Source: an uncultured Clostridia bacterium
GTDB lineage: Bacteria; Bacillota; Clostridia; Christensenellales; UBA3700
Assembly (NCBI GenBank): GCA_947038565.1
Contig: CAMQWP010000004.1
Coordinates: forward strand, 9,010 to 73,009
Direction: 5' to 3'
Length of the DNA: 64,000 bases
The notes beneath the pieces were generated by a model that was not told the DNA's origin, searched no databases, and was given only the letters and a program-made list of their open reading frames with translations. A program made the position numbers and the translations under genes. Within the stretch, counting starts at the first letter, position 1; each line of letters opens with the position of its first letter. This document shows positions 2,678 to 62,652 of this stretch, piece by piece.

Positions 2678-2909
2678 ATAAACCTCATTCGTACTATATC
2701 CTATATATGATACCATTTTATGAATGATTTTTCAATCCTTTTAGCACATTTTTTTGTAATATTTTTATTTTACCTATTATTTACAAATATTACCATAAAT
2801 GATATATAGGTAAATTTTTACTTATGCAGGTATTGTCCACTAGATATATTATAAAACTTTCTTATAGTCTCAGTGCAAAGCAAGTATTATGTGCAATGAA
2901 AATAGCAAA

Positions 2910-2946
2910 TAAAAACACGCACAATTCGCAATTAATCGTGCGTGTT
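2910..2946 (-). terminator. rho-independent terminator after ypeB
   Basis: Stem ACACGCAC (2915-2922) pairs with GTGCGTGT (2938-2945). A T-run follows on the minus strand. Confidence 0.6.
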
Positions 2947-2994
2947 ACAATTATTATATAGATTATCTTATATTATAATATTATATATACATTA

Positions 2995-4380: not shown

Positions 4381-4388
4381 ACTTCTCC

Positions 4389-5111: not shown

Positions 5112-5339
5112 GATACTCCTTATCGTCAGGTCAACCCCGACTAATTATTGTGCATACTATTCAGTTATTGCAAGCTTTATCCTCCTGTCTTGTGGAAGAT
5201 AAATCTCGCTTTATTTATCCGAGAATATGTATTATCACTTAACACTAAACTAGAACGGGGGGAGTATCTAACCATATTAAGTGATATTTAATTAATTGAT
5301 TATCGTCATGTTTCCACATGATCAAGTATCAAATAAAGA

Positions 5340-42723: not shown

Positions 42724-44247
42724 CTACTTATTTTGCTTAGCTAGTTTCTTTGCTGATTTAGCTTTTGCTCTCTCTAAATGGTGTAGATAGATTGTAGTAC
42801 CAAGTATTTTAAAATATGATTTTATACCGTCTAATCTTTCACTTTTAATAGTGGTATAATCTGTCTTGTACACATCAAAAGTTTTAATATGTGCGTCAAG
42901 TCTACACTTTTTGATTGAAATAGTTAAATTATCGGTATTTACAATATCAAATCTAGCTATCTTTTTATGACCTATAACTGTACCATTGAACACTATGATT
43001 TTTTCGCCGTCTACATTGGTAGATAGTTCAAACATCTCCACCCTTTGCGAAAAGTCTATATCCTCTACAAGCATAGCTTTATCAATATCGCACGCATCGA
43101 AAGTTATAGTGTATTCTTGATATTCCGACTGCGTAATAGTTACTTCAATACCATTAGCCACATCATCAGCTATAAGGATATTTCCGCTTGCACTTTTCAC
43201 TTTCATCTTCTCAGCAAATGCACTGTTGATCCTGTCTCCCAGTCCTTTTAATGCTATCACGTCAGCATCAGCAAATTTACCTTCACGGTTAGGTGGTACA
43301 TTTAGTAACAACATACTATTACCGCCCGTTGAGCCATAATATATATTTAGTAATTTGTCAATGCTTTTTACTTTTTTATCTTGTGACTTATGATAGAACC
43401 AGCCCGGTCTGATAGATACATCTACCTCCGCAGGGTACCACATAAGATTTTCATAATTCGATAAAACACTTCGACTTCCTAGATCCTCTGACATATTATC
43501 GATTTTTTCAAATTTGTCTGTGTCAGTTTGCTGTGATCCTTTTTGTATGGTTTGAGTATCAGCATTGTATGCAGGGACAACATTATACTCAGAATACCTT
43601 GCACGACCCTCCTCATTTCCTACCCATCTAACATCTGGCCCACAGTTAGAAATAGCACAGTTTGGTTGCAACTTTCTAATAAGGCTATAGTAAGACGCAA
43701 AGTCATAAACTTGCGCTGGTTTCCCGTCCATGTGTGCACCACACGCACCATCAAACCACATTGTAAATAGATCACCATATCCAGTCAATAACTCTTGCAA
43801 CTGAGCAAGGTAAAACTCATTATATTTTGGTGTAGAATAATGCTTACTATTTCTATCCCAAGGCGATAAATATACTCCTAATTCTATACCTATCTTGTCA
43901 CAAGATACTCTAAGCTCTGATAACAAGTCACGTCCATAAGGCGAGTTCATTATTTTATAATCAGTAGTTTTTGTATCCCATAGACAAAAGCCATCATGAT
44001 GCTTTGCAGTATAAATAAGTCCCTTCATGCCTGCTTCTTTTAGACATGTACACCACTGATCAGTGTCGGCATCTTTTAATGTAAATGTACTTACAGGCTC
44101 TTTACCATTACCCCATTCCTTACCAGTAAACGTATTCATGCCAAAATGTATAAATGCATAGCACCCCATTTCTTCTATATGTTTTTGCGGTGCATTTGGA
44201 ACAACTGCAACCATTTTTTCTAAAAAGCTTATATCATCTATTTTCAT
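42724..44247 (-). CDS. alpha-L-fucosidase, GH29, with a C-terminal beta-sandwich domain
   Basis: F.HFG.NTF, AKHHDGFCLWDT and W.DGA motifs. No signal peptide. Confidence 0.88.
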   Translation of the reverse strand: MKIDDISFLEKMVAVVPNAPQKHIEEMGCYAFIHFGMNTFTGKEWGNGKEPVSTFTLKDADTDQWCTCLKEAGMKGLIYTAKHHDGFCLWDTKTTDYKIMNSPYGRDLLSELRVSCDKIGIELGVYLSPWDRNSKHYSTPKYNEFYLAQLQELLTGYGDLFTMWFDGACGAHMDGKPAQVYDFASYYSLIRKLQPNCAISNCGPDVRWVGNEEGRARYSEYNVVPAYNADTQTIQKGSQQTDTDKFEKIDNMSEDLGSRSVLSNYENLMWYPAEVDVSIRPGWFYHKSQDKKVKSIDKLLNIYYGSTGGNSMLLLNVPPNREGKFADADVIALKGLGDRINSAFAEKMKVKSASGNILIADDVANGIEVTITQSEYQEYTITFDACDIDKAMLVEDIDFSQRVEMFELSTNVDGEKIIVFNGTVIGHKKIARFDIVNTDNLTISIKKCRLDAHIKTFDVYKTDYTTIKSERLDGIKSYFKILGTTIYLHHLERAKAKSAKKLAKQNK

Positions 44248-44725
44248 AATTATTCCCCCATAACTTGATTCATTATTTTTGTTTATTTATCTCACATTGT
44301 AATACTTGTTTTATCAACGCAATTTATTTATATTTATTATTAATTTTCTATCTTAATGTATATGTTTAAATTACTACAAAATCTATAAATACTTTATTGA
44401 TTATTAGCAATATTATGAATAGAATTGTATATATTTTTTGTTTGTGAATTCATAACTTTTTCTTTTGTTTTGTGAACATAATGCATAAATTGCACGCTTA
44501 AAGCGTTAACGCATACAACAAATAGGTACTAAACCATAAATATTTTATAAATTAAATAATAAATGTTTATATAGATTATTTAGTTTTTATATTATATGTT
44601 TGATTATTTTTATTATACTTGTTTCTAATATTATATCATAAAACGAGAAATTGTCAACATAAAAATCTGTTATTTAATTCACTATTATATACAATATTTA
44701 TCTTATTATAAGTCACTTAAAAACA

Positions 44726-44767
44726 ATAAAAAATATCGCAAGATAGTTTTACTATCATGCGATATTT
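44726..44767 (-). terminator. rho-independent terminator after the ALDH gene
   Basis: AAATATCGCA..GATAGT/ACTATC..TGCGATATTT long stem, followed by T6 on the minus strand. Confidence 0.7.
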
Positions 44768-44784
44768 CGTTAGTCTAGTCTTTA

Positions 44785-46149
44785 TTATTTTAATAATTTT
44801 CTTAGCAACTTTAAATGGTCTTTATATGGTGCATATCGTATAGGTATATCAAATGACCAAAACTTTTTCATAACACTTTTACTATGAGAGAAAGTATCAA
44901 TACTCTTTGCCCCATGGTAACTTCCCATACCGCTATCACCTACACCACCAAAAGCCATAGTTGAAGAAGCAAGATGAAGTAGCGTGTCATTTACACAACC
45001 ACCGCCATATGATATATTTCTTATAATACATTTTTCTACCTGCTTACTTTTCGTGAATAAATATAGAGCCAGTGGCTTAGGTCTACTATTAATGCGTATT
45101 ATTACCTCATTGATATCTGAATACTCTATGATCGGTATAATTGGACCGAAGATTTCTTCTTGCATTATTTCATCATCCCACTGAACATTTGTAAGGATAG
45201 CTGGTGATATTTTATTTGTCTCAACTCGGCTTACCCCACCGAATTCAACAGTACCATTACTTATTAATTTATTCAATCTTTCAAAGTGTTTTCTATTTAT
45301 TATTTTTGGATAATCAGGGCTATCAAGTTGATTCTCACCATAGAACTTAACTATCCACTTCTTCATTTCCAATACCAGTTGATCTTTAATATCTTTATGT
45401 GCAAAAACATAATCTGGTGCGACACATGTTTGCCCACAATTGACTAGCTTTCCCCATACAATACGTTTTGCAGAGATATCTATATTTGCTGTCACGTCTA
45501 CTATACATGGACTTTTACCGCCTAACTCAAGAGTCACTGGAGTCAAGTTTTTAGCAGCTTTTTCCATTACGATTTTACCTACTTCCACACTACCCGTAAA
45601 GAAAATATGGTCAAACTTTGTTTCAAATAAACTTTGATTTACGTCACGACCACCTCTTATGACTTTTATAAACCTTTCATCAAATACCGCAAGAATTTCC
45701 TCTAACATCATAGATACATTACTAGAGTAATTAGACGGCTTCAACACTACGCAATTACCCGCAGCAATTGCACCGACCATCGGCATAATTGATAATAACA
45801 ATGGATAATTCCACGGCGATACGACCAATACAACACCAAGCGGTTCTTTATAAATTTTCGACTTCGCGGGGAATTGTGCAAGGCTTACCTTAACACGTCG
45901 AGGCATAGTTAACTTCTTTAAATTCTTAAGCATAAAATTAATCTCTTCATATATAAGACTTAATTCCGTCTCAAATGACTCAAAATTAGACTTGCCTAAA
46001 TCTTTGTTTAATGCTGTCAACAAATTACTTTCATTACTTTTTAATACATCTAATAGAGTTACTAACTGTTTACGTCTAAAATATATTTCTTTTGTTGCTC
46101 CGCTGTTAAAATATTCCCTTTGTTTATTTACGATACTGGTTTCGAACAT
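44785..46149 (-). CDS. NAD(P)-dependent aldehyde dehydrogenase (ALDH3-like)
   Basis: ELGGKSP and GQTCVAPDY (catalytic Cys) motifs. Confidence 0.9.
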   Translation of the reverse strand: MFETSIVNKQREYFNSGATKEIYFRRKQLVTLLDVLKSNESNLLTALNKDLGKSNFESFETELSLIYEEINFMLKNLKKLTMPRRVKVSLAQFPAKSKIYKEPLGVVLVVSPWNYPLLLSIMPMVGAIAAGNCVVLKPSNYSSNVSMMLEEILAVFDERFIKVIRGGRDVNQSLFETKFDHIFFTGSVEVGKIVMEKAAKNLTPVTLELGGKSPCIVDVTANIDISAKRIVWGKLVNCGQTCVAPDYVFAHKDIKDQLVLEMKKWIVKFYGENQLDSPDYPKIINRKHFERLNKLISNGTVEFGGVSRVETNKISPAILTNVQWDDEIMQEEIFGPIIPIIEYSDINEVIIRINSRPKPLALYLFTKSKQVEKCIIRNISYGGGCVNDTLLHLASSTMAFGGVGDSGMGSYHGAKSIDTFSHSKSVMKKFWSFDIPIRYAPYKDHLKLLRKLLK

Positions 46150-46246
46150 AATTCACCTCTTTTTATTAAAATAACACGAAATTTACGTGCAAATCTTGAC
46201 AATTGATCACCTTTGTATTATACTATACATATAAAACCTATACAAT

Positions 46247-46261
46247 AGTTAATTATTAACT
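46247..46261. promoter_or_regulatory. perfect 15-bp palindrome AGTTAATTATTAACT in the TetR/ALDH divergent intergenic region (candidate TetR operator)
   Basis: Read directly from the sequence. Lies 56 nt upstream of the TetR ATG. Confidence 0.35.
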
Positions 46262-46316
46262 TTATGTATAAACTTAAACATAGCACGCAAAACGGACATC
46301 ATTGAGGAGAATTATT

Positions 46317-46895
46317 ATGACTACTAAAGCACCATACCGCAACTCTATACGATCAAAGAAGATGATTAAAAAAGCATTTCTACAATTAATTTGTGATAAA
46401 GATATATCAAAAATCAAAGTATTAGAGATAACTGATTTAGCGGATATTAGCAAAGGCACATTTTACACACACTTTCATGACGTATATAATGTACTAGAAG
46501 ATATTGAAAATGAATGCATTAATGGCATGATTGAAGTATTAAGTCATAATACTGCAGTAAATATTCTTGATGATTTATCACCATTTTTAAAGACAGTATT
46601 TGACGGTTTAGAGAGAGAAAAAGAAAAATATACTTTCCTTATCAAATCTACATGCGCTACATCATTTTTGTACAAGCTACAAAAAGCATTTGTCGATTAC
46701 ATGCTAAGTTTCACTGAGATTGTTGACAGGATAAAATCACCAGCACTGGCAAGTTTATTCTTTTCATTTATCGCTGTAGGCATTTCTAATATTATCCATC
46801 AATGGATACTAGGCAATGCGGATATCTCTTTAGTTGAGCTTTCGACTCAGCTTAATGGCTGTATAATTAATGGAATATCAACCATCTTAAAATAA
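46317..46895 (+). CDS. TetR/AcrR family transcriptional regulator
   Basis: The N-terminal HTH region (..I.V.EI...A.ISKGTFY.HF.D) is a TetR_N signature. Start is ATG 46317, after GAGGAG. Confidence 0.85.
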   Translation: MTTKAPYRNSIRSKKMIKKAFLQLICDKDISKIKVLEITDLADISKGTFYTHFHDVYNVLEDIENECINGMIEVLSHNTAVNILDDLSPFLKTVFDGLEREKEKYTFLIKSTCATSFLYKLQKAFVDYMLSFTEIVDRIKSPALASLFFSFIAVGISNIIHQWILGNADISLVELSTQLNGCIINGISTILK

Positions 46896-46920
46896 TAATT
46901 TTATTTTCAATTCACATAAA

Positions 46921-46958
46921 ACAAAACACCCTCAACGCAAAGTTGAAGGTGTTTTTTT
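46921..46958. terminator. bidirectional terminator
   Basis: ACACCCTCAAC...GTTGAAGGTGT stem followed by T7. Confidence 0.75.
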
Positions 46959-46970
46959 ATCTTTAATATA

Positions 46971-48443
46971 TTAATCTACACAGATCTTAAAACAAATAGG
47001 TAGCTTACTGATTATAGCTTCATCGGTAGTAATATCTAAACTATTACCGTTTTGCTTAAAAGTGACGCCTACATCAGATCCAAGAATTTTTATCGAAGTG
47101 ATATCGTATTTGATACCATTCTCATTTGCCCTTCTTAATAATTTCATTGAGTAAGTACTACGTCCATTTTTATTAGACATAGGGAAAGCATATATAACTC
47201 CAGTACGGTAAGTGTACCTATAGTCTTTGATTGAAAATCTTTTAGACTCTTTAAATGCTCCGTTCTTAGACATCTTGCCTTCACCAAAACCTAGCTCAAA
47301 AGGCCCTGATCCATATATTGCCTCGCCATTTATCTCGAGCCACTTTCCGATATCAAGAAGTATTTCCTCTTCCTCTTTGCATATTTCACCTTCAGGAGTA
47401 GGTCCAACATTAAGCATATAGCAACCGTTTTTAGAAAATACTTCTATCATATTAGTTATTATGTCATAAGTATTTTTAAAAGTATTATTATATGTAAATC
47501 CCCAACTTCTCTTACCCATAGAAGTATCATTCTGCCATAAATCAGGAAGTATATTATCTACCTGACCACGCTCAACATCGAAAGTTGCGCAACCATTCAT
47601 CACAGCACCCCACTTATAGAATAGAGTTACTTCTTTACCCCATTCAATAGCACGGTTATAATAATAAGCCATAAATTTACGCATGTATGGACGGAACTCA
47701 CTTTTTTGCACCCACCAGTCAAGGTATATCGCTGAAGGCTGAAGCCTATCTAGCATATCACATAGTGAAACTAACCAATCTTCTAGCCACTCTACTGGAG
47801 CAGTAATGTGCTTATCAGTCTTGTGTATTTTGCCATTTTCCGGCGCAAAGGCAGGACCATACAAATCACGCAATTGTTCATTTATAGCCACTTCACCACT
47901 TGGCTCGTAGTGAGTTGCCGTATTCATAAACCAATAGTGCTCGGCTCTATGATGAGACGCTAGAAATTCAAGACCAGTATCCTCACATGCTTTTTTGATC
48001 TCCATAGAATAATCTCTTCCGTTAAGTGCCATCATATTCCAACGCGATAGATCTGTGTCGTACATTTTTACACCATCATGATGCTCTACAACTGGCATGA
48101 CATGCCTAGCACCCGCTTTTTTAAACAATTCACACCATTTATTAGGATCGAATTTTTCAGGCTTGAACATTGGGATCAACTGACTATATTCAAAATCCTT
48201 GCCGTATGTATTTATTCTATGAGTATAAGACTTATGTCCCGGCATATACATCCACCTAGGATACCATTCATTTTCAACGCCTGCTACTGAGTAAACTCCC
48301 CAGTGAATAAATATACCGAATCTGCCTTGCTTATACCATTCAGGAGTAGACCACTGAGCTAGACTCTCCCAGCTATCCTTATACTTGCCACTTGCTATTA
48401 CATCGTCTATCTTTACTAAATAATTTTTAAATTTTTCCATCAT
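46971..48443 (-). CDS. alpha-L-fucosidase, GH29 (second paralog)
   Basis: GIFIHWG.YS, VEHHDG and Y.DWW motifs. No signal peptide. The start could be 48443 or 48440. Confidence 0.88.
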   Translation of the reverse strand: MMEKFKNYLVKIDDVIASGKYKDSWESLAQWSTPEWYKQGRFGIFIHWGVYSVAGVENEWYPRWMYMPGHKSYTHRINTYGKDFEYSQLIPMFKPEKFDPNKWCELFKKAGARHVMPVVEHHDGVKMYDTDLSRWNMMALNGRDYSMEIKKACEDTGLEFLASHHRAEHYWFMNTATHYEPSGEVAINEQLRDLYGPAFAPENGKIHKTDKHITAPVEWLEDWLVSLCDMLDRLQPSAIYLDWWVQKSEFRPYMRKFMAYYYNRAIEWGKEVTLFYKWGAVMNGCATFDVERGQVDNILPDLWQNDTSMGKRSWGFTYNNTFKNTYDIITNMIEVFSKNGCYMLNVGPTPEGEICKEEEEILLDIGKWLEINGEAIYGSGPFELGFGEGKMSKNGAFKESKRFSIKDYRYTYRTGVIYAFPMSNKNGRSTYSMKLLRRANENGIKYDITSIKILGSDVGVTFKQNGNSLDITTDEAIISKLPICFKICVD

Positions 48444-48676
48444 ATCACCTTCCCACTTATTGATATAATTATATCATATCCGATTAACAATTGCAATGCT
48501 AATATTGAATTGCACTATATATTAATAATGCTATCATACTCGCATATTATATTTTAATACATATTCCTACTTGCTTTTAGCACAGTTTTAAGTATAATTT
48601 CATAGACTAAGTATAGGCGTATCTACATACTATTCCGATTGTTTTAATCGTGAATGGACAAACGGAGGTTTTAAAA

Positions 48677-48970
48677 ATGACTATATCTATAATATCAAAT
48701 GTAATTTTAGCACTACTAGCAGTATTATCAAGTTTCTTATCATATTTTTTTCACATAAAAAATGAGCTTGAAAAAGCAGTGCCTGACGCTATAAACAATG
48801 CAGAGCTAGCTGGAAAAACTGGTGCTGAAAAGCTAGAGTTGGCTACTACCAACATTTACAAACTTGTACCTAAGTACATGCACACATTTATCACGAAAGA
48901 ATTTGTTAGAAATATCATTCAATTAGCTTTTGATAAAATAGCTGATTATGCTAGAAAGCAAGCTGAATAG
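48677..48970 (+). CDS. LL-H-type (superfamily 6) holin-like small membrane protein
   Basis: One N-terminal TM segment followed by ..GKTGAEKLELA....Y.L.P., which resembles the Holin_LLH pattern. GGAGGT lies 8 nt before ATG 48677. No lysin gene is adjacent. Confidence 0.5.
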   Translation: MTISIISNVILALLAVLSSFLSYFFHIKNELEKAVPDAINNAELAGKTGAEKLELATTNIYKLVPKYMHTFITKEFVRNIIQLAFDKIADYARKQAE

Positions 48971-49182: not shown

Positions 49183-50280
49183 TTAATTGCTTACATTTTC
49201 ATGTCTTCTCTTATCACGCTTAATCATTTTCGCAGTATTCCTTTCCGATTCAATTCTATCGTAATTATAGTCTATAAAGTGCATAACACACTTAAGCGTA
49301 TCATCATTAATTATACTGATCAATACTGGTTTAAACTTAACTTTTGAACCTAACTCGCTTGCATATATCTTAAGACTTTCATTTGGGATCACTAAATAAC
49401 AATCTATATTCCATTTACTAATAATCACTTTCACTAATTGACTTCTACCATACATTATCAAATCATACTTTTCATTTACAGTCATTCTAGTCCCATGCTT
49501 AGACATTGCGTTATGCAATACACTCTCATATCTATGTTTCTGCTGCTCGCTTAATTGCTCGTATTTATCGTATTTATTCATGATGTTTTTTTCACAAATC
49601 TCTATTGATCGCGATTGCACTTTTATTTCATCATCTTCCATCAACAAACTGCATATGTTATTATTTTCATACCTATTCTCATTTTTTATTAAACTTGGTA
49701 ATATTTCGAATTCTTCTTGTGCAAGTGGACTCCACTTCGCATAAAGAGTTATATTATCTATAATAGGTAATGACTGATCAAAGAATACAACGCAATTTTT
49801 ATCTATGCACCAGTAGTCAAACTTACGATCATAATGTAAGGGTATACTATCTATATATATATACTCCCCATTTACTATAGATATTGCTTCTATAAACGTC
49901 CCTCCAAGAGTATTAAACTTCACCATACAAACGCACGGCTTCCATATAGCGTATAGCACTAATATATCATCATCAACACTAATACTATGTTTCATGTTTT
50001 GCATGTTATTATATATCTCTCCGTTATCGTCAGGAGAAGTATTCCAATGATAGAAGATGTAGTTTTCCTTCTTGTAATTATTTTTGCACAGCATGCAATT
50101 ATCTTTGAAAGAAGTATATTTGTGTTGCATTTCGCCATCAGTAGCTCCATTCGAGCGGAATTTTATGCAAACTTTTGTCTCTTTTAGTTTTATAGAAATA
50201 AGCACAATCAAAATAAGTAAAATAGCTATTACAATAATCCACCAATATTTATTTATCCATATTGCATTCACCATCGACAA
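49183..50280 (-). CDS. membrane-anchored protein with two Listeria-Bacteroides (InlB B / Flg_new) repeats and an unknown C-terminal domain
   Basis: N-terminal TM segment (WWIIVIAILLILIVLISI). Two repeats follow, ending ..F.HWNT..DG..Y......LYAIW and ..F.YW.........LYAKW. The last roughly 170 aa are unrecognised. Confidence 0.55.
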   Translation of the reverse strand: MSMVNAIWINKYWWIIVIAILLILIVLISIKLKETKVCIKFRSNGATDGEMQHKYTSFKDNCMLCKNNYKKENYIFYHWNTSPDDNGEIYNNMQNMKHSISVDDDILVLYAIWKPCVCMVKFNTLGGTFIEAISIVNGEYIYIDSIPLHYDRKFDYWCIDKNCVVFFDQSLPIIDNITLYAKWSPLAQEEFEILPSLIKNENRYENNNICSLLMEDDEIKVQSRSIEICEKNIMNKYDKYEQLSEQQKHRYESVLHNAMSKHGTRMTVNEKYDLIMYGRSQLVKVIISKWNIDCYLVIPNESLKIYASELGSKVKFKPVLISIINDDTLKCVMHFIDYNYDRIESERNTAKMIKRDKRRHENVSN

Positions 50281-50411: not shown

Positions 50412-50446
50412 CAAAACAAGGCATCAAGCCTTAAACTTGATACCTT
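50412..50446 (-). terminator. rho-independent terminator after the 60-aa ORF
   Basis: AAGGTATCAAG-tttaagg-CTTGATGCCTT (one mismatch), followed by GTTTTG on the minus strand. Confidence 0.55.
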
Positions 50447-50495
50447 ATTAATAATTATTGTAGTCTATTCGATTATTACTCTTCATGTCAGATAC

Positions 50496-50678
50496 TCAAA
50501 TTGTTTTTCCTATCTTCCAAGATATTAACTGTTTAAACACCTCGTCACCACCGAAATTGTAACGTGCGCCTATTTCCCACAATTTCTTTTTCATTATAAG
50601 CATGCCTCTATCATAAGATACATGTTCTTGATTCATCTGTTCCTCTAGCCTTATAAATTCATCTTCTGGTATATTCAT
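50496..50678 (-). CDS. small hypothetical protein (60 aa)
   Basis: Strong RBS (AAAGGAG 7 nt before the ATG) and its own terminator. No TM segment and no Cys. I recognise no family. Confidence 0.45.
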   Translation of the reverse strand: MNIPEDEFIRLEEQMNQEHVSYDRGMLIMKKKLWEIGARYNFGGDEVFKQLISWKIGKTI

Positions 50679-50985: not shown

Positions 50986-51132
50986 TTATTTCTTATTCTT
51001 CATTGACTCAGGCACTTTTGGCTGATTGATCCACCAAGTACAAGCAACATCTACTGAATGCTCGCCCATTTTTCTAGCCATCTTAGGAACTAATCCCTCT
51101 CTTACGTTTGCATCATTCTTCTTGTTATTCAT
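50986..51132 (-). CDS. agrD: AgrD-like cyclic-lactone autoinducing-peptide precursor (48 aa; absent from the ORF track)
   Basis: My own translation is MNNKKNDANVREGLVPKMARKMGEHSVDVACTWWINQPKVPESMKNKK. GGAG lies 9 nt upstream, and the gene starts 38 nt downstream of agrB. The A-C-x-W-x-x-x-Q-P-x-x-P-x-S tail matches the clostridial AgrD signature. Confidence 0.7.
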   Translation of the reverse strand: MNNKKNDANVREGLVPKMARKMGEHSVDVACTWWINQPKVPESMKNKK

Positions 51133-51170
51133 ATACATTTTCTCCATTATATCCACAGCCCTAATGTCTG

Positions 51171-51764
51171 TTAAATAACTTTCTTTTGTCTCATCTTATT
51201 TTGTATCGTCCCTATAATATATAGTATCGATACGGAAAACATGGTAAAAGCGATACTGAAAGCATATATTCTTGTCACTTCAAATACCATCATGATCACA
51301 TAGGCAATAGATAAAATCAGTATTGCAAATACTAGCTTTATCTTCAATTTTCTACCTTCAGCTTTTTCAATATCTTTATTTGCACAACCTACTGGCGCAA
51401 GTATCAATCCTAATATGACAGACAAGCTATAAAAAGGAATACTCATATAGCTTAGAATATATAAAGGAGCATAAGTAAGCCCGATAAATGTACTATAAAA
51501 CACTAGCAGTCCTAATATACAACGCATGTGAGTTTTCGCATGACATCCGCCACCTAATCCTCGCATTGTCATAAATACGCTTATAAATATGAATGTTTCA
51601 ATATACCTTGCTGTAGCAATACCAATCACAATTAAAATAATCAAATTCAACAATGTTGATATGAATATCTCAAAGCTATAATCGTATATTTCTCTATCAA
51701 CTTCGGCAATGTTTTTTTTATTAACAAAGAATGTTGTTAATCTTTTGGAAATCTTTTGTATCAT
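51171..51764 (-). CDS. agrB: accessory gene regulator B (AgrD-processing membrane peptidase)
   Basis: 197 aa and polytopic. R.LGGGCHAKTHMRC places His and Cys 7 residues apart, as in the AgrB catalytic pair. Confidence 0.85.
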   Translation of the reverse strand: MIQKISKRLTTFFVNKKNIAEVDREIYDYSFEIFISTLLNLIILIVIGIATARYIETFIFISVFMTMRGLGGGCHAKTHMRCILGLLVFYSTFIGLTYAPLYILSYMSIPFYSLSVILGLILAPVGCANKDIEKAEGRKLKIKLVFAILILSIAYVIMMVFEVTRIYAFSIAFTMFSVSILYIIGTIQNKMRQKKVI

Positions 51765-51784: not shown

Positions 51785-53134
51785 TTAACATTTTTTGTTT
51801 CTTTTTTCAATATTTTTGCGTGAACTACACTCTAACGGGTGTGAAATGCAGTTTTTTAATAATATTGCCATTAAAAACTGTCCTTTTTCCACCTTGAAAT
51901 TCATAATACCGTCATATTTTGTCGATAATTCATTTATCTTTTGTAGACCATATCCATGATTTAGACTCGTATTATCTTTTGTGCTTTTTCCTATTTCGAC
52001 GTTTTCATTAGAAGTAGGGTTCGTGCATTTTATAGCTAAATAATTCCCTTGCATTTTCAAAGCAAGAGATATTTCTTTACGCTCTGCAGTCAAGTTTTCA
52101 CAAGCCTCAATGCTATTGCATAATATATTACCTAGAATTACACAAATATCCATGCTATTTATTTCAATACTACTAAATATAAAAGCCGTAATATTAAGTT
52201 TGATACCATGCCTAGCTGCAAGGTTACTTTTCACATTCAATAATGCATTGATGTCATCAAGGCCTACATAATTCACGATCTGCTTAGATAACATTGACTC
52301 GCAAATTTGATTGACTACATCAAATGCTTTATCATCATTGTTATGCATGTACTCCTTTATGGTGAACATTTTATGCTTAAGATCATGTATTTCCCTATTA
52401 GACTCTATTTGCGATGAAATCAATAGGTTATAATGATTTATTTCCGTTTCTAAATTTATTATTTCTTTTTCTTGATTGTGTATCTTACCTTCCCTTTTAG
52501 CTATTGAGTCAAATGTAATTAATGCACTTATATTAGCAGCAATTAGCAAAACTGCCGATGATAAAACCATTATTTTTTCCGTTATGCCATTTGCTTTATA
52601 TACCACAAAAGAAAGTATTATCAACACAACTATAGAAGCAATCGGCATAAGTAGGCTTAAAGAGCTATGCCAAATATTAATTCCATTCGCTACTGGCTTT
52701 ACAAGCATGAGCATAGTCTTCACTGTACAATATAGTAAAAACTTTGATATTACGCCACATAGTAGATAAAGCTCAATGTCATCCTGTATCATCACTGGGC
52801 TAATATTATTAATAGCACCAACCGTCAACGTAACAAGTAACTCAAATGACATAGATATCACTATATACATTAGAATCGATACTATTCTTTTATTAAGTTT
52901 CATCTTGTAAATATAAGTAAAATCAAATAAAATAATAGAATTGATCGTGATTAGCATAATTGGATTATTGATAAATACTGTGGCAACAGCTGAAAATATC
53001 AAATACAATACTACAGTGATAACCCCGATAGATTTCTTCGCTATATCGCCAAATCTGAATCTTTTAGATAATTCATAAATAACCAACAATTCGATTATCG
53101 CAACGAATTGATTTATAATTATTTTCTCTATCAT
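51785..53134 (-). CDS. agrC: AgrC-like (HPK10, GHKL) sensor histidine kinase
   Basis: About 6 N-terminal TM helices, an H-box (EIHDLKHKM), an N-box (LGNILCNSIEA) and a G-box (GYGL). ATGA overlap with the response-regulator gene. Confidence 0.8.
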   Translation of the reverse strand: MIEKIIINQFVAIIELLVIYELSKRFRFGDIAKKSIGVITVVLYLIFSAVATVFINNPIMLITINSIILFDFTYIYKMKLNKRIVSILMYIVISMSFELLVTLTVGAINNISPVMIQDDIELYLLCGVISKFLLYCTVKTMLMLVKPVANGINIWHSSLSLLMPIASIVVLIILSFVVYKANGITEKIMVLSSAVLLIAANISALITFDSIAKREGKIHNQEKEIINLETEINHYNLLISSQIESNREIHDLKHKMFTIKEYMHNNDDKAFDVVNQICESMLSKQIVNYVGLDDINALLNVKSNLAARHGIKLNITAFIFSSIEINSMDICVILGNILCNSIEACENLTAERKEISLALKMQGNYLAIKCTNPTSNENVEIGKSTKDNTSLNHGYGLQKINELSTKYDGIMNFKVEKGQFLMAILLKNCISHPLECSSRKNIEKRNKKC

Positions 53135-53850
53135 ATCTCTACCTTATTAATATAATTATTTAATTGCGACTTAAATTCATCTTTATATTTCCGACTTACC
53201 AAAACTGTATTCCCATTATCCAGTAGAATTTCATTACTATTCATAGAAAATACCTTTGTGAGATTAACGATATAGCACCTATGCGAACGACAGAAGTGTA
53301 ATTGATCTAGTTCTTCATATATTTCAGAAAGCTGTTTTACAAGCTCAACAGTAGTATTATCATGCATATGTATTAGTACAGCTTTATTAAGACTTTCAAT
53401 ATAGGCTATATTATTTACATCTATAAATACATTATTACGCTGTTTCTCTACTCTAAGGATTTTTCTATTTGATATAAAACTAGTGACTGCTCTATGTATC
53501 TCATGTTTAAATATCTGATCATCTATAGGTTTACTTATGTATTGAAATGCACCTACGCAAAAAGCATCAGATACAAACGAATTATGGCTAGTAACAAATA
53601 TCACTATGACATTATTATCTATTTCCCTAATTTTTGATATAGCTCGGACTCCATTATCATCACCCACTTCTATATCCATGAAAATAATATCAAGCATTCC
53701 TGCATGTTTATAAAAATTGACTAGATTCAAGCAGTTTGTAAATTCGAAAATTTTAAACTTCTCACAGTCATCATCAAAATAATCCATAACACGTATAGAA
53801 ACATCATCAACCATAAATTTTTCATCATCACAAATAGCTATTTTAATCAT
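53131..53850 (-). CDS. agrA: LytTR-family response regulator (AgrA-like)
   Basis: Receiver domain (IAICDDE...DIIFMDI) plus a C-terminal LytTR domain (I.YIES....V..H........L...E.....F.R.HR.YIVN). Confidence 0.9.
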   Translation of the reverse strand: MIKIAICDDEKFMVDDVSIRVMDYFDDDCEKFKIFEFTNCLNLVNFYKHAGMLDIIFMDIEVGDDNGVRAISKIREIDNNVIVIFVTSHNSFVSDAFCVGAFQYISKPIDDQIFKHEIHRAVTSFISNRKILRVEKQRNNVFIDVNNIAYIESLNKAVLIHMHDNTTVELVKQLSEIYEELDQLHFCRSHRCYIVNLTKVFSMNSNEILLDNGNTVLVSRKYKDEFKSQLNNYINKVEI

Positions 53851-53953: not shown

Positions 53954-54111
53954 TAATTGAAGCATAATTTATACTATAAATTCATTTTTTAAATAATAAT
54001 CAAATATATTGTCGAATATTGTCATATTTTACATTATCCTGCAAATATTTAGTATCAAGCTGAATTTTAAATTTGCTGATTTAACGCGTTTTATAAATAT
54101 GTGATTGCGCC

Positions 54112-54148
54112 AAAAAAAGCTGAGCAATATGATTGCTCAGCTTTTTTA
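54112..54148. terminator. bidirectional terminator after xylB, insulating it from the agr cassette
   Basis: AAAAAA-AGCTGAGCAAT-atg-ATTGCTCAGCT-TTTTTT. Confidence 0.8.
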
Positions 54149-54233: not shown

Positions 54234-55727
54234 TTATCTGATTTTAGCAAGATTTCTATTGTTATCTTTTAATAGCGAGTAAAGTTGACTATATAACAAA
54301 TATAAATTATCAGCCATTGCACTATCTTCTTGTTGCGGATTGTTATAAGTTGTATTATCATTTAAAAACGAAGTACTTGCACTAATTATATCATCATATA
54401 CACCAGCGCCCACACACGCTAAAATAGCAACGCCTCTAGCACCGCTTTCAGCACTTTCTCTTGATATCAATGTCTTTTTTGTAATATTTGATATTATACT
54501 TAACCATACATCACTTTTAGCACCGCCTCCTGATACAGTTATATCCCCTATCAAAACGCCTATATTTTCTATCACAGTTATGCAATCACGCATACTAAAA
54601 GCGACACCTTCAAGCACTGATCTATATAAATGCCCAAGTTTATGAGTAATAGACAGCCCGATAAAACTTGCTCTGATATCATTATCTAAGTGAGGAGTTC
54701 TCTCGCCTTGCAAATATGGCAAGAATAATAATCCTTCACTGCCCAACGCTATGCCATAAGCTAATCTGTCTAGCTCTTTGTATGATATATCTTTCGCAAA
54801 ATTCTTTTTGAACCAGCTAAGCGACAGGCATGCTGACTGCGTAACGCCCATCACATGCCAAGTATTTGGCATTGCGTGACAAAACGTCTGCACCCTTCCT
54901 TTCTCGTCACGGTTTGGCTTGTCAAGCGATGCAAACACAACGCCCGAACTACCTAGCGACATACTTACCTCGCCGTCATGAATGATACCGTTACCTAGCC
55001 CTGCAGCTGCCTGATCACCAGCACCAGCGACCACTACAGTATCAGTCGTTAATCCCGTTAGCGACGCAATATTATTAGTAATATCACCTACCACTTCACA
55101 GCTTTCAAATACTTGTGGCAACCAGTTTATGTCAATATCAAAATGATTTAATATCTCATTTGACCACTGTCTTTTGCCCACATCTAACATTCCTGTACCA
55201 CTTGCATCAGAAACATCAGTAGTAAAATTTCCTGTAAGCATGAAATTAACATAGTCTTTTGGTAGCAATATTTTATCTATATTAGCATATACTTCCGCAA
55301 GATTATTTTTCACCCATAGCAGACTCGGTAATGTAAATGCCGCAATAGCAGGATTTAGCGTATAATCAGCATAATCCTTCATGCTTGAATTTATGTATTC
55401 ACACTCTGCCTCTGCCCTTGTATCACACCATATTATACTATTATGTAACAGTGTTAGTTTTTCATCAAGCATTACGAGACCATGCATTTGACCTGATAAT
55501 CCGATACCTTTAATAAGGTCTGGGCTTACTATATTCATATCAACAATATTTTTAATACAATAGATAGTAGCATCATACCACAGTTTAGCGTCTTGCTCTG
55601 CGTAACCATTTTTCGGATTAAGTAAAGGGTAGGACTGATATGATTCTGCCATTTTATCGCCTACACTACTATATAATATAGCTTTAGTTCCGCTAGTACC
55701 GATATCTAAACCTAGGACATAATACAT
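54234..55727 (-). CDS. xylB: xylulokinase
   Basis: FGGY kinase with N-terminus YVLGLDIGTSGTKA. Its start overlaps the xylA stop. Confidence 0.88.
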   Translation of the reverse strand: MYYVLGLDIGTSGTKAILYSSVGDKMAESYQSYPLLNPKNGYAEQDAKLWYDATIYCIKNIVDMNIVSPDLIKGIGLSGQMHGLVMLDEKLTLLHNSIIWCDTRAEAECEYINSSMKDYADYTLNPAIAAFTLPSLLWVKNNLAEVYANIDKILLPKDYVNFMLTGNFTTDVSDASGTGMLDVGKRQWSNEILNHFDIDINWLPQVFESCEVVGDITNNIASLTGLTTDTVVVAGAGDQAAAGLGNGIIHDGEVSMSLGSSGVVFASLDKPNRDEKGRVQTFCHAMPNTWHVMGVTQSACLSLSWFKKNFAKDISYKELDRLAYGIALGSEGLLFLPYLQGERTPHLDNDIRASFIGLSITHKLGHLYRSVLEGVAFSMRDCITVIENIGVLIGDITVSGGGAKSDVWLSIISNITKKTLISRESAESGARGVAILACVGAGVYDDIISASTSFLNDNTTYNNPQQEDSAMADNLYLLYSQLYSLLKDNNRNLAKIR

Positions 55728-57046
55728 TATCTACCTGCCTTGATTATGCAATCATTAAGCACTGACTCTAACCACTCTTGTCTGCCACTATTAGTAGTAG
55801 GCTCAACTCCATTAAGAGTATAATTATATAAATCAAGAAGACTTGTCTTTCCGTCAACTATGTCTTTTCCAATACCGCTATTATAGCTAGAGTATCTATC
55901 CTCGACGAACTTATCAATTCTACCATCAGTCACAAGCTGTTCTGCAACTAGCAAGCCGTACGCGAATGAATCCATACCTGCAATGTAACATAGGAATATA
56001 TCTTCGAATGAGTTACTTTGTCTGCGTGCTTTAGAATCAAAATTTAAGCCACCGTTTGTAAAGCCACCCGCACGAATTGTCTCATACATACATAATGAAG
56101 TATCGTATATATTTGTAGGGAATTGGTCAGTATCCCAACCAAGCAACATATCGCCCTGATTTGCATCAATTGAACCAAACATTCCATTATCACTAGCAAC
56201 TCTAAGCTCGTGGTTAAAAGTATGACCAGCAAGGGTAGCATGGTTTGCTTCTATATTTAACTTAAAATCCTTATCAAGACCGTAATGTCTCAGGAAACCT
56301 ATAACTGTCGCAGAGTCGAAATCATACTGATGTTTTGTAGGCTCTTTTGGTTTTGGCTCTATGTAAAAATCTCCTTCATAGCCAATAGACCTACCATACT
56401 CCACGGTCATCTTCATAAGCCTTGCCATATTATCTTGCTCAAACTTCATGTCAGTATTCAGTAGAGTATCGTATCCTTCACGACCGCCCCAGAACACATA
56501 ACCAGTACCGCCAAGCTCTACAGTAATATCAAGAGCTTTCTTGATCTGTGCACCTGCATATGCAAATACCTCACTGCTAGGATTTGTACCTGCACCACTC
56601 ATAAATCGTGGATTAGCAAAACAGTTTGCAGTACCCCATAAAAGTTTAATTCCAGTTCTTTGCATTTCACTTTTTATTAAAGGTACTATCACGTCAAGAT
56701 TTGCACTGCTTTCAGCGAAAGTTGCACCCTCAGGAGCGATATCTCTATCATGAAAACAGAAGTATTCTATTCCTAATTTCTCCATTATTTCAAACCCTGC
56801 GAACACTTTATTTTTGCAAGTATCTAATGGATTATCTGCACCGAAAGACTTGTTTATCGTATCATCACCAAACATGTCTTTTCCGCCTGCACACATTGTA
56901 TGCCAGTAGCTCATTGCGAACTTTAAATGCTCGCTCATTTTACGTCCAAGCACTATTTTGTTTTTATCATAATGCTTAAAACTTAACATATTATCACTAT
57001 CAATACCTTCGTATTTTATATTGCCAATATTCTCAAAAAACTTCAT
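55727..57046 (-). CDS. xylA: xylose isomerase
   Basis: FCFHD.D, WGGREG and IEPKP.EP..HQYD motifs. Confidence 0.95.
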
Positions 57047-57103
57047 AACTATATTTTCTCCTTGTGCTATTTCTAAATAACACCATTCTATTTATATTTT
57101 TAA

Positions 57104-60100
57104 CTAATTAAATCTGATGCACATTAATTCAAATGGATTAAAAGATATACAACCATCAACATCACTAATCTTATCCTCCATGATATCTACTACACTAACA
57201 TCAGTCATACCACTCATCTTAACATTTAACTTTTGTTTAGTATCACTTGAGTTATATAGTCTTACAATACTACCCCCGCAGTCAGCTTTTTTCACAGCCT
57301 CTAATACAATATTTTTATTATCTATATCAATATTATGCTGTATTAAATCTTCCTCACCTTCCACTTCAATAATTGGATTATTTAGCAAATAAGCATACTT
57401 GTAAGTATCCATTCCTAACTTACCTTCATGAGTGAATATTGCATATTTGAATTCACTGTTCCCTTGGTCGATATTTTTACCTGGCCCACCTTTCGGGTTA
57501 CGGATTATGCACATATCCATTTTACTGCCCTTGCATGCAAATCCATATTTACTATCATTTATTATTGATATGCCTGATAGCTCATCTGACATGTCTATGA
57601 ACTTTTGTCCTGACACTTCGAACTGTGCTTGTTCAGTTTTTGTCAGTTCAGTAGTAGATCTTTTAAAATGACCAAACTGTGTATTAAAACTACAGACTTC
57701 TGACTTCATACTTGTGTCAAAAGAAAGTCTTAACATTTGCTCCTGTCCTGCAAACTTTACGCTAACTTTTGCAGTAGCCATACTACTATCATCAGTTATT
57801 GTAATGCATTGTTTTACTACTGTATTATCTATCATAAAAGTCATAGTTGCTACAGCGGTAGGCCCATCCGAATGCGATGTGAAACTTGTACAATTAAGCG
57901 ACTTTTTATTCTTTTTATAATTACTCTTTATATCCCAACAATCCCCTTTATCAGCATACATAATAAATTCACTCATACATGCATTTTTAGATACGAATTC
58001 TTTGTTTAATTTCTTATCAAAATAACTTACAATATTACCATTGCGGAATATTATTTTTACACTATTATTTTCTATAAAATCTTTACCTGCTACTGCATAA
58101 AAATCATTAATAATCACCGCATTTTTCGCATCTACACTTGTTAATGCCTTAGCGTAAAGAGATAACCACGCACCATTTGATTTAAACACATGTTGATAGT
58201 CATATGAGTTAGTATTTAAAAATCCATTTCCATCACAAGTTTTTGCGGTTAAAGCTTGTACTGCTTTGTCTATTTCTTTGAGCAATATTTCATACCTAGG
58301 CACGCACTCGTCGTACACTCTATTTATAGAAGAACCTGGCAAAATATCATGAAATTGATATAGCAATATTTCTTTCCAAATTTCTTCAAGTCTAGCATTA
58401 TTTATTGGCATTTTTTCTTCATCATAACCAAGCATTGATATTAACAATTCGTAGTTTCTAAGAGAAAATTCGCACTTTCTATTATACCATTTATTTAACA
58501 CTCTAGAAGTGTAAGTTCCCTGATGTTTTTCTAGGTATAGCTCACCTTTATATGTACTAAACATATCTTTATCTTTTTCTAAATCGTCGAAGAAATTAAC
58601 TGCTTTCTCTATCTTCACGCTAGGCAATGGTTTTATATCCTCAAGACGTGTAGCTCGCTCTAAATGTTCAAATCCTGGACCCGCTCCACCGTCACCTATT
58701 CCAGCTAACATCATTGCCTTTCTACACTTATCAGCTTCCTGATAATTCTTAACTCCGAACACCATCTTATCCGCTCTACATGGGCTATTGTAAGTACTTT
58801 CTGGTAGCATATGTGCAAACACTGTACTTCCATCAAGACCCTCCCAATTAAATGTGTGATAAGGGAATTTAGTTACAGCATTCCAACTCATTTTTTGAGT
58901 TAAGAAATACGGTACATTCGCAAGTTTCATTACTTGAGGAAGACATGGAGAATATCCGAAACTATCAGGCAGCCACAGTATTTTCATATCCTCACCAAAC
59001 TCGTTTTGGAAATACTTCTTACCATAATAGAACTGACGAACTAAACTCTCACCACCTATTAAATTAGAGTCCATTTCTACCCATGTAGCACCTTGCACTT
59101 CCCATCTTCCCTGCTTGATGTACTCACTCATTCTACCATATACTTCAGGGTTATCTCTCTTTACCCAGTCATATAACTGAGCTTGAGATGCACCAAACTT
59201 ATATGTCGGGAACTTATCTAAGTTCATGAGCTGATTAGAAAAAGTCCTAATTCCTTTTCTATAACTCTCTCTAATTGGCCATAACCATGCTAGATCAAGA
59301 TGCGCATGTCCTATCATACTATAAGTAAATTTATTATCATCGTTAGCATTTTTAAATAGGCTAGCTATCTCCGAACGCATTAACTTAGCTGACGATTCGT
59401 CTATCCCATTTTTTGACATTGTACGTACTTTCATAAGCCCTTGCATTATGCTTTTTGCAGTCTGATTATCAGCGTAATTATATGCTGATATTAATACGTC
59501 TACATCATATGCAAGTCCTCTTATTTCAGTATTTTGAATCACTACATCCATTTGACATACTTTCGCTTGATCGTGGAAATATCCAAACAAATCATTACCC
59601 GCAAGGTCAATCCAAAAGTCTACTTTATCACCATGTATTAAACCTTCGCTTAATACTATTTTTTTCTCGGGACGACCTAGCTGATAGTCATAATCAGACG
59701 CGTAGCAAGTTATTGCTTGCTTTGCCGATCCATTACTATCCACTACTAAACCTTCTCCGCCCATGTCGATTAGAAAAGCGATTTTATTAGTGTCAACTTT
59801 GTGCTTTGACAATTCTGCTGTCATGTTTACCCACATACAGTCAAATACTTCATCCGCCCAAACAGTACCAACCGATACTGACTTTTCTAGTCCATCAAGT
59901 TTATTTTCAAAAGCTAAAGGTTCTTTTGACCATCTACCTATAGCATCAAGTGTTGTGACATAAGTAAATGATTTTTCATGCAATTGCTTTGCAAATTTTT
60001 GCATGCTAGCAGATTTCGCAGCATGACCTAGTCTATTACTTTTCTTAGAAACAAAATTCGCATGAGTGCATTTTATTTTATCTAAAAGATCGCCCTCTAT

Positions 60101-60124
60101 TGCCATTTTTAATTTATAATTCAT
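57104..60124 (-). CDS. alpha-mannosidase, GH38
   Basis: GHAHLDLAWLWP metal-site motif, about 1000 aa, no signal peptide. Start set at ATG 60124 (GGGGGA 10 nt upstream); the ORF-track start at 60133 is a TTG. Confidence 0.9.
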   Translation of the reverse strand: MNYKLKMAIEGDLLDKIKCTHANFVSKKSNRLGHAAKSASMQKFAKQLHEKSFTYVTTLDAIGRWSKEPLAFENKLDGLEKSVSVGTVWADEVFDCMWVNMTAELSKHKVDTNKIAFLIDMGGEGLVVDSNGSAKQAITCYASDYDYQLGRPEKKIVLSEGLIHGDKVDFWIDLAGNDLFGYFHDQAKVCQMDVVIQNTEIRGLAYDVDVLISAYNYADNQTAKSIMQGLMKVRTMSKNGIDESSAKLMRSEIASLFKNANDDNKFTYSMIGHAHLDLAWLWPIRESYRKGIRTFSNQLMNLDKFPTYKFGASQAQLYDWVKRDNPEVYGRMSEYIKQGRWEVQGATWVEMDSNLIGGESLVRQFYYGKKYFQNEFGEDMKILWLPDSFGYSPCLPQVMKLANVPYFLTQKMSWNAVTKFPYHTFNWEGLDGSTVFAHMLPESTYNSPCRADKMVFGVKNYQEADKCRKAMMLAGIGDGGAGPGFEHLERATRLEDIKPLPSVKIEKAVNFFDDLEKDKDMFSTYKGELYLEKHQGTYTSRVLNKWYNRKCEFSLRNYELLISMLGYDEEKMPINNARLEEIWKEILLYQFHDILPGSSINRVYDECVPRYEILLKEIDKAVQALTAKTCDGNGFLNTNSYDYQHVFKSNGAWLSLYAKALTSVDAKNAVIINDFYAVAGKDFIENNSVKIIFRNGNIVSYFDKKLNKEFVSKNACMSEFIMYADKGDCWDIKSNYKKNKKSLNCTSFTSHSDGPTAVATMTFMIDNTVVKQCITITDDSSMATAKVSVKFAGQEQMLRLSFDTSMKSEVCSFNTQFGHFKRSTTELTKTEQAQFEVSGQKFIDMSDELSGISIINDSKYGFACKGSKMDMCIIRNPKGGPGKNIDQGNSEFKYAIFTHEGKLGMDTYKYAYLLNNPIIEVEGEEDLIQHNIDIDNKNIVLEAVKKADCGGSIVRLYNSSDTKQKLNVKMSGMTDVSVVDIMEDKISDVDGCISFNPFELMCIRFN

Positions 60125-60149
60125 TATATCCAATCCCCCTTCAAGAAAG

Positions 60150-62258: not shown

Positions 62259-62607
62259 AATATCCACCTCCATCATCTCATACAACATCGCATATCAATT
62301 ATTATGCAATATTTATGTTATCATTTTAATTTTACACTATTACTCTTACTATTACAAGTATATAATTCTATTTATATAGACAAAATGTATGATATTTGTA
62401 ATTATAATCATCAACATCACTTTGAAGTATCGCTATTATATTTAATTATAACATTAAAATGTATATAATTATAATATTATAGCAAATAGACTATAAAGTT
62501 ATCAATAAACGATCGAATTATCAGTCGCATATATAATATTAATAGTTTTACGGCTATTATTTACTGGACAAAAAAACCCATTTCCACACTATTCTAGCAA
62601 CTTATAA

Positions 62608-62645
62608 AGCAAAATAACTGCTTGGGATTATTCCCAAACAGTTAC
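62608..62645 (-). terminator. rho-independent terminator after the GH95 gene
   Basis: AACTGTTTGGGA-ata-ATCCCAAGCAGTT followed by ATTTTGCTTT on the minus strand. Confidence 0.6.
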
Positions 62646-62652
62646 TTTTTAT

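Follow-up and report, generated by a model that had tools for sequence, protein, structure and literature searches.

A conserved AgrD-type precursor gene with a hydrophilic leader closes an agr operon in an uncultured Clostridia bacterium

The DNA analysed here, called the window in the following, is a stretch of 64,000 nucleotides (nt) from an uncultured Clostridia bacterium (contig CAMQWP010000004.1 of assembly GCA_947038565.1). Its subject is a gene of 48 codons that had been predicted, from the letters alone, to encode an AgrD-type precursor of an autoinducing peptide (AIP). This small open reading frame (ORF) is a genuine, conserved AgrD precursor gene that ends a complete four-gene agr operon. 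We put the probability at about 85% that the minus strand carries here a complete agr-type operon for quorum sensing, made up of a LytTR regulator, a kinase, agrB and agrD, and that the hydrophilic leader of the precursor is no mechanistic departure from known systems. The precursor itself is a new, uncharacterised member of its family, which the pipelines of public annotation already detect. The operon comprises the following features (lengths of products in amino acids, aa):

53131..53850, minus strand: agrA-type response regulator with receiver and LytTR domains, 239 aa (PF00072, E 5e-14; PF04397, E 2e-18)
51785..53134, minus strand: agrC-type sensor histidine kinase, 449 aa (HATPase_c_5, E 7e-17), syntenic in all related loci
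51171..51764, minus strand: agrB, membrane peptidase and cyclase, 197 aa (PF04647, E 6e-30, model positions 1-183 of 185)
51145..51142, minus strand: Shine-Dalgarno motif GGAG, 9 nt before the agrD ATG
50986..51132, minus strand: agrD, AIP precursor, 48 codons and stop, identified by sequence, the TIGR04223 model, synteny, substitution rates and a public gene call

Read on the minus strand from 51132 to 50986 (ATG AAT AAC ... AAG AAA TAA), agrD encodes the 48-aa product MNNKKNDANVREGLVPKMARKMGEHSVDVACTWWINQPKVPESMKNKK, exactly as first read. The GGAG and the distance of 38 nt between the agrB stop and the agrD start, both on the same strand, were also found where they had been placed. A mechanical ORF list extends the frame back to a GTG at 51156 (56 aa); this longer version is missing from public gene calls, in which the 48-aa version is present. 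The gene had been described as hidden, but this was an artefact of an ORF track that stopped at 60 aa: the identical 48-aa AgrD has already been called as a gene on 15 public contigs (NCBI and ENA assemblies), and relatives have already been named. All agrD homologues start at an equivalent ATG behind a Shine-Dalgarno motif (GGAG, AGGAGG or AAGGA, in five of five loci compared).

The family assignment rests on TIGR04223, the NCBIfam model for the AgrD family cyclic lactone autoinducer peptide. It matches the product with 34.7 bits (E 1.3e-8; curated cut-off 19 bits), residues 17-46 lying on model positions 9-38 of 38. The layout C31-TWWI-N-Q-P38-K-V-P41-ESMKNKK fits the plan of the family: small precursors (about 40-55 aa) with a conserved Cys or Ser, a roughly five-membered ring, Pro-x-x-Pro in the follower and charges at the C terminus. 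A match to the Pfam family Ig_TRAPPC10 was sub-threshold and discarded as spurious. When a profile of the subfamily was run against the 1101 stop-to-stop segments of the window, agrD was the sole match, and no second AgrD was found among them. Among the three closest loci the ratio of nonsynonymous to synonymous substitution rates (dN/dS) of agrD is 0.11-0.37, with silent sites near saturation.

These data bear directly on whether the ORF could have arisen by chance or be what is left of a decayed gene, in which case no peptide signal would come from the locus. A hint in this direction is given by a contig with an identical agrD (L007, ENA ERZ28619698 scaffold_3752, 1160-1949), where the upstream gene is called with only 128 aa, has no family hit on record and is followed by a gap of 256 nt ahead of agrD. 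Here, agrB may be disrupted in some strains, or the assembly may be in error. In the window, however, all four agr genes are intact, the TIGR04223 score clears the curated cut-off by a wide margin, dN/dS is well below 1 and the same 48-aa product recurs on 15 contigs. Moreover, start codon and Shine-Dalgarno motif are kept in loci that share only 40-68% identity in AgrB. A chance or decayed frame is, therefore, hardly conceivable.

The partners of agrD are those expected of an agr system. The regulator gene and the start of the kinase gene overlap by 4 nt, and six hydrophobic segments are predicted in the N terminus of the kinase. AgrB has five predicted hydrophobic segments and carries R68, G73, H75 and C82, which are invariant among six homologues. 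The essential residues of AgrB from S. aureus are R70, G75, H77 and C84, and the spacing is identical (PMC10196373). A relative of AgrB in the PDB was not found. Upstream, a strong hairpin (54113..54147) parts the operon from genes for a xylose kinase and isomerase.

The same arrangement is seen in related loci. Homologues of AgrB with 68, 66, 50 and 40% identity are all encoded in the order regulator, kinase, AgrB, and in each of four distinct related loci a called gene of 44-48 aa follows. The absence of a conserved ORF at this position had been named as an observation that would speak against the prediction; the ORF is present in all four. Together, synteny, the conserved ORF and the TIGR04223 match bear out the claim of an AgrD-type precursor beside agrB. 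The four-gene order with a terminal ORF of 44-48 aa is found in L001/L002, L003, L004, L005 and L026, the last from Candidatus Pelethenecus. The AgrD sequences of related loci are:

MKNKNEETKVKEGIIPMLARKVGERSVDAACTWWLNQPKVPESMRKQK
MNNKNEITKIKEGIIPKIARKVGEGSVDAACHWWMCQPKVPESMKKKK
MQNKKVKEALLPKLAKKIGEKSVDSACLWWVNQPKVPESMKKQK
MRNKNQKKGLIPKLVRKIGECSANQTCAWWSYQPKLPESLKKDKN

A word-indexed homology search with the single AgrD peptide recovered only the peptide itself, so an exhaustive HMMER search and a profile search were needed to find relatives. The former, against 1.84 billion representatives, gave 14 matches at E <= 1e-3. Three long proteins from this search (P0013, P0018 and P0020) were rejected as repeat-inflated chance matches with 4-7 matching stretches each; they are repeat proteins, with eukaryote-like repeats or BspA-type leucine-rich repeats. 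The profile search extended the subfamily to at least 66 clusters at 90% identity, which have in common the motif ...IPKxA(R/K)KxGExSVDxA-C-x-W-W-x-xQPKVPESMKK; the consensus reads ...IPKxAxKxGExSVDxAC-x-W-W-F-N-QPKVPxSMKK. All 40 members tested match TIGR04223. Across 40 relatives Gly23, Cys31, Gln37 and Pro38 are invariant and Ala19, Trp34 and Pro41 nearly so; in the ring, Trp3 and Trp4 are almost fixed and positions 2 and 5 vary. Judged from the alignment, such an invariant frame with two variable ring positions is the pattern expected of agr specificity variants. All clusters come from uncultured, apparently gut-associated Firmicutes, some of them filed as Mollicutes or Anaeroplasmataceae. 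Several relatives, from metagenome-assembled genomes (MAGs) of Clostridia bacterium, Candidatus Pelethenecus, Anaeroplasma and Anaeroplasmataceae, are named "cyclic lactone autoinducer peptide" by NCBI. A scan of GTDB genomes with AgrB alone gave no matches; with an alignment of AgrB, 12 distant loci were found, which served as comparators with hydrophobic leaders.

The precursor is predicted to be divided as follows:

51043..51132, minus strand: leader, residues 1-30, with a Lys/Asn-rich N terminus (1-12) and an amphipathic helix GLVPKMARKMGEHSVDVA (13-30)
51028..51042, minus strand: core, residues 31-35, CTWWI, predicted five-residue macrocycle, from conservation and the register of characterised AIPs
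50989..51027, minus strand: follower, residues 36-48, NQPKVPESMKNKK, charged recognition tail, predicted to be removed by AgrB; it takes part in the TIGR04223 match (residues 17-46) and contains the invariant Gln37 and Pro38

The original prediction had drawn attention to a leader rich in Lys, Arg and Asn that is hydrophilic, and this composition was confirmed. Leaders were compared by their grand average of hydropathy (GRAVY) and by their most hydrophobic segment of 11 residues. The reference precursors of S. aureus I-III, L. monocytogenes, C. perfringens and C. acetobutylicum were confirmed to be exact public AgrD or cyclic lactone autoinducer sequences. The values are:

Leader of the window: GRAVY -0.91, best segment -0.10, net charge +2
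Subfamily median: GRAVY -0.63, best segment +0.95
S. aureus I-III: GRAVY +0.40 to +1.19, best segment +1.37 to +1.95
C. perfringens: GRAVY +0.80, best segment +2.19
Eight AgrDs beside distant AgrB relatives (GTDB genomes): GRAVY +0.46 to +1.23, best segment +1.79 to +2.65
L. monocytogenes: GRAVY -0.78, best segment -0.19
C. acetobutylicum: GRAVY -0.82, best segment +0.29

Hydrophilic does not mean that the leader lacks amphipathicity, as had been supposed. The helical hydrophobic moment of residues 13-30, the 18 residues before Cys31, is 0.44 (p = 0.036 against shuffles), compared to 0.42 for AgrD-I of S. aureus. On a helical wheel L14, M18, V29, M22, V15, W33 and A19 fall inside one arc of 140 degrees, with K17, R20, K21, E24 and D28 on the opposite face. 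AlphaFold2, run with an alignment of 40 sequences, predicts a single helix from residue 5 to 35 (predicted local distance difference test, pLDDT, about 80-85 in the helix, mean 76.7). In an alignment with relatives that have hydrophobic leaders, part of the hydrophobic run is replaced by basic residues (AFALVVGL versus KMARKMGE), and the leaders of the clade retain a hydrophobic stripe at i, i+1, i+4 and i+8. The leader of the window is thus hydrophilic and, according to these predictions, also an amphipathic helix.

Nor is a hydrophilic leader as unusual as originally thought. The AgrDs of L. monocytogenes and C. acetobutylicum are equally hydrophilic and belong to agr systems that are experimentally functional (PMC4916163; PMC12312760); the Listeria AIP was even made in E. 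coli from agrBD alone (PMC4916163). A hydrophilic leader is, therefore, not without precedent. The hydrophilic, cationic leader is a trait of the clade at one end of the known range of AgrDs and does not indicate a different mechanism.

It could nevertheless be argued that the Lys/Arg/Asn-rich leader marks a mechanistically divergent subclass, whose precursors reach AgrB, are exported or are trimmed without anchoring by an amphipathic helix, for example by purely electrostatic binding to anionic lipids or because the leader peptide has a function of its own. The leader core is the least hydrophobic of every AgrD compared, and the AgrDs linked to distant AgrBs are hydrophobic at the aligned positions. 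In addition, the clade is coherent (14 clusters when grouped at 50% identity and at least 66 when grouped at 90%), its leaders carry a net charge of +2 to +7, and a motif directly before the Cys, GExSVDxA, is strongly conserved without an assigned role. On the other hand, the segment is predicted to be helical and its moment equals that of AgrD-I from S. aureus. Equally hydrophilic AgrDs of Listeria and C. acetobutylicum are processed by an ordinary AgrB, the AgrB of the window is canonical in its catalytic residues and in its full-length match to PF04647, and TIGR04223 already spans leader residues 17-30. We consider such a divergence of mechanism quite improbable. The related idea that the clade with a cationic leader and a C-x-W-W-x ring is a functionally distinct subclass, in which the Gly, the GExSVDxA motif and the basic leader specify a different processing or delivery, or an activity of the leader, is unlikely as well. 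What is left of the proposed "divergent AgrD subclass" is a coherent sequence clade inside TIGR04223; this weak sense holds, anything stronger does not.

Several observations weigh against an ordinary, complete agr operon. The best segment of the leader was ranked the lowest in every set of sequences compared, although the listed value for L. monocytogenes is -0.19, and the mean hydrophobicity of the leader is about 0; membrane docking by the leader helix is, therefore, less certain than in S. aureus. Only 9 of 40 leaders of the subfamily are individually more amphipathic than shuffles (p < 0.05). The Pfam family PF05931, proposed as a check alongside TIGR04223, does not match AgrD even at E <= 10. 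This family is staphylococcal in scope, and the missing match means that AgrD is not placed in the narrower staphylococcal-type family. There is no terminator-like hairpin directly 3' of agrD; the nearest one downstream is at 50449..50415, beyond an unconserved ORF of 60 aa. A repeat finder gave no clear pair of LytTR-type direct repeats upstream of the operon. Mature AIPs of S. aureus keep tails of 2-4 residues and use MroQ; a protease for the leader was not identified in the window, in which no search aimed at MroQ was made.

How the ring is cut out of the precursor we infer by analogy with characterised systems. Where a verified precursor has a characterised AIP, its ring stops one residue short of (Q/E)P, as seen in C. 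perfringens (CLWFT|HQP), Listeria (CFMFV|YEP) and C. acetobutylicum (CVLVTL|YEP). Applied to the AgrD of the window, this rule gives CTWWI|NQP. The originally proposed core, CTWWI, thus stood, followed by NQPKVPES and in the register of the AIPs from C. perfringens, L. monocytogenes and C. acetobutylicum. The C-terminal end of the C. perfringens AgrD (..SACLWFTHQPEEPKSL..), which had been cited for comparison, proved correct when compared to the public sequence.

A mature ring of six residues, CTWWIN, would result if AgrB cut directly before Gln37. Six-membered rings are known in clostridia, with CVLVTL from C. acetobutylicum and CWFWSY from Ruminiclostridium cellulolyticum, and the residue after the predicted ring varies in the subfamily (Asn, His, Tyr or Cys). 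However, verified rings always end one residue before (Q/E)P, the six-membered CVLVTL included, and throughout the subfamily the distance between Cys and QP is fixed at 6 residues, just as it is in C. perfringens. We regard the larger ring as very unlikely and keep to the five-membered one.

For the chemistry of this ring, native clostridial AIPs are instructive. Those detected so far have no N-terminal tail and their thiolactone rearranges to a homodetic lactam (PMC8251862). The CTWWI thiolactone of the original prediction may, therefore, exist only transiently, as an intermediate. The product is possibly a tail-less CTWWI macrocycle that has rearranged to the lactam; its expected [M+H]+ is 690.307 for either isomer. 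A close parallel is Rc-AIP1 from Ruminiclostridium cellulolyticum, which has a Trp-rich clostridial core (CWFWSY, compared to CTWWI here) and whose native product has no N-terminal tail and is converted from thiolactone to lactam (PMC8251862). The likeness refers to the reported core and chemistry; the ring of Rc-AIP1 has six residues and that of the window is predicted to have five. If the leader is cut directly before Cys31, a lactam of the Rc-AIP1 type would be the most likely chemistry for CTWWI.

From these considerations the following model can be drawn. The leader helix would dock the precursor on the membrane at its cytoplasmic face, where AgrB, with Cys82 and His75, would cut between Ile35 and Asn36 and the acyl group would move to the thiol of Cys31, giving the CTWWI thiolactone. 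During or after export, the leader would be removed by a protease. Should this cut lie directly before Cys31, the free amine could attack the thioester, and cyclo(CTWWI), a homodetic lactam, would result. The peptide would then be read by the kinase through its six-helix sensor domain, and the kinase would phosphorylate the LytTR regulator, which presumably auto-induces the operon.

The comparison with known systems underlines how much of this is shared. Like the AgrD of the window, those of C. perfringens (CLWFT) and C. difficile (AgrD1, CPWII) have 44-48 aa, are encoded immediately after agrB and match TIGR04223. They also share the Cys with four ring residues that include Trp, the one spacer residue, the QP-x-x-P-x-S/L motif and the charged end. 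In contrast, the leader of C. perfringens is strongly hydrophobic, the ring of the window contains WW, a pair nearly fixed across the clade, and the window operon includes genes for a kinase and a regulator of its own (order A-C-B-D). L. monocytogenes (CFMFV) and C. acetobutylicum (CVLVTL) have hydrophilic, Lys-rich leaders (moment 0.39) and a canonical AgrB, as in the window. Their followers start with YEP, whereas that of the window is xQP, and the ring sequences differ, the ring of C. acetobutylicum having six residues instead of the five predicted here. The gene order is agrBDCA in Listeria and agrBD plus agrCA in C. acetobutylicum. The AgrDs I-IV of S. aureus also have a helical leader, a Cys-anchored ring of five residues and a charged tail, in addition to the likeness in hydrophobic moment and in the Arg/Gly/His/Cys spacing of AgrB. 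Their leaders are hydrophobic, however (GRAVY +0.4 to +1.2), the follower reads DE-x-x-VP instead of NQPKVP, and S. aureus has RNAIII as a partner, whereas no RNAIII-like partner is evident in the window. No Rfam family matched anywhere in the window.

Two non-coding elements are conserved at the operon:

51146..51174, minus strand: conserved intergenic block between agrB and agrD with a promoter-like TTAACA-17-TATAAT, which agrees with the consensus at 11 of 12 positions, the best match of the region
54006..54033, minus strand: candidate operator or promoter element ATGTAAAATATGACAATATTCGACAATA upstream of the regulator gene, a block common to L001 and L003

Within the first, 25 nt of the spacer (CAGACATTAGGGCTGTGGATATAAT, 51146..51170, minus strand) are identical at 23-24 of 25 positions in L001 and L003, compared to 71-78% in the flanking coding DNA and 58-63% in the 200 nt after agrD. 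Candidate roles are an internal promoter, an operator or an RNA element. The TTAACA overlies the agrB stop. An internal promoter was not accepted because a transcript starting about 7 nt past the -10 element would lose the conserved Shine-Dalgarno site. The second element belongs to a block, ATGT[AT]AAAT-n-ATGACAAT, that recurs in three loci (window, L001 1473-1490 and L003 2760-2777), each time about 135-175 nt upstream of the gene for the LytTR regulator; at the candidate operator of the window, GACAATAT occurs twice, 10 nt apart. Going by its position and conservation, the block is a candidate for the operator through which autoinduction might act.

In clostridia, sporulation is known to be under agr control. 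Downstream of agrD, the window contains the ORF of 60 aa, which has no family match (50496..50678, minus strand), and a gene for a protein of 365 aa with one transmembrane segment and Listeria-Bacteroides (Flg_new) repeats (49183..50280, minus strand). In L003, too, a Flg_new protein is encoded right after agrD, but tblastn revealed no sequence homology between the loci. Both genes were rejected as conserved agr targets, as neither has a homologue in related loci. As conservation of the downstream genes is lacking among these loci, no agr target can be assigned here.

Other loci have different neighbours. In the MAG of Candidatus Pelethenecus (GCA_035439785.1, L026/L027, 5170-8953) a radical-SAM protein, small ORFs and an ABC transporter are encoded directly after agrD, which looks like a cluster for a ribosomally made peptide that is modified after translation (RiPP) or a bacteriocin under agr control. 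A further agr-type locus, outside the window, is found on an ENA scaffold (RIIS20-1_SAMEA5316449_METAG-scaffold_7, 2562-5138). It consists of a LytTR fragment, a HATPase_c_5 protein of 288 aa, an AgrB of 207 aa and an AgrD of 45 aa in which Ser replaces the ring Cys (..SVSAASVWWYHQPVVPESMKSKK); this exchange would give a lactone.

It should be mentioned that AgrB and AgrD also match phage families of PHROGs: AgrB phrog_10353 (E 2e-16) and AgrD phrog_17065, a family of 45 positions (E 1.7e-4). Therefore, agr-type genes circulate on phages too. An ORF of 106 aa (48650..48970, plus strand) with an N-terminal hydrophobic segment has a weak likeness to holins (phrog_15303, E 5e-6; phrog_19508, holin, E 4e-4); it stands isolated between a fucosidase gene and the genes adjacent to the agr operon. 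Apart from this ORF, nothing else near the agr locus looks phage-derived.

The window has a G+C content of 35%, and the agr operon sits amid dense genes for glycan utilisation (42724..48443 and 54234..63981). They encode two alpha-L-fucosidases, a beta-galactosidase of glycoside hydrolase family 2 (GH2), a GH38 alpha-mannosidase, GH3 and GH95 enzymes, and a xylose isomerase and a xylulokinase (xylA, xylB). In C. thermocellum, exposure to pentoses has been linked to induction of agrD (PMC5322536). Two further features characterise the host:

2995..5111, minus strand: pair of a SleB-type cortex hydrolase (Hydrolase_2 and PG_binding_1) and YpeB
29527..30381: BacA, recycling of the peptidoglycan lipid carrier

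With its SleB/YpeB pair, the host is an endospore former. What some relatives are called had suggested a wall-less Mollicute, Candidatus Pelethenecus being filed under Mollicutes incertae sedis, but this was rejected because SleB, YpeB and BacA are encoded in the window. Judged by these genes, the host is a walled, spore-forming Firmicute; it is represented by metagenome assemblies alone.

Our knowledge of agr biology is not changed by these findings: the family model and the logic of the operon were established before, and so were hydrophilic leaders. What remains new is the coherent clade with a Trp-Trp ring and a basic leader, together with the conserved 25-nt spacer between agrB and agrD. 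For a glycan-degrading, spore-forming gut Firmicute there is now a concrete prediction of a signal, cyclo- or thiolactone-CTWWI, with a mass that can be looked for. A sizeable clade of AgrDs, in which the leader is basic and Trp-Trp nearly fixed in the ring, has been delineated; it could be mined for interference with agr across species. If the clade were indeed a distinct subclass, the near-universal Trp-Trp pharmacophore might allow wide cross-talk, or interference, between species of the gut.

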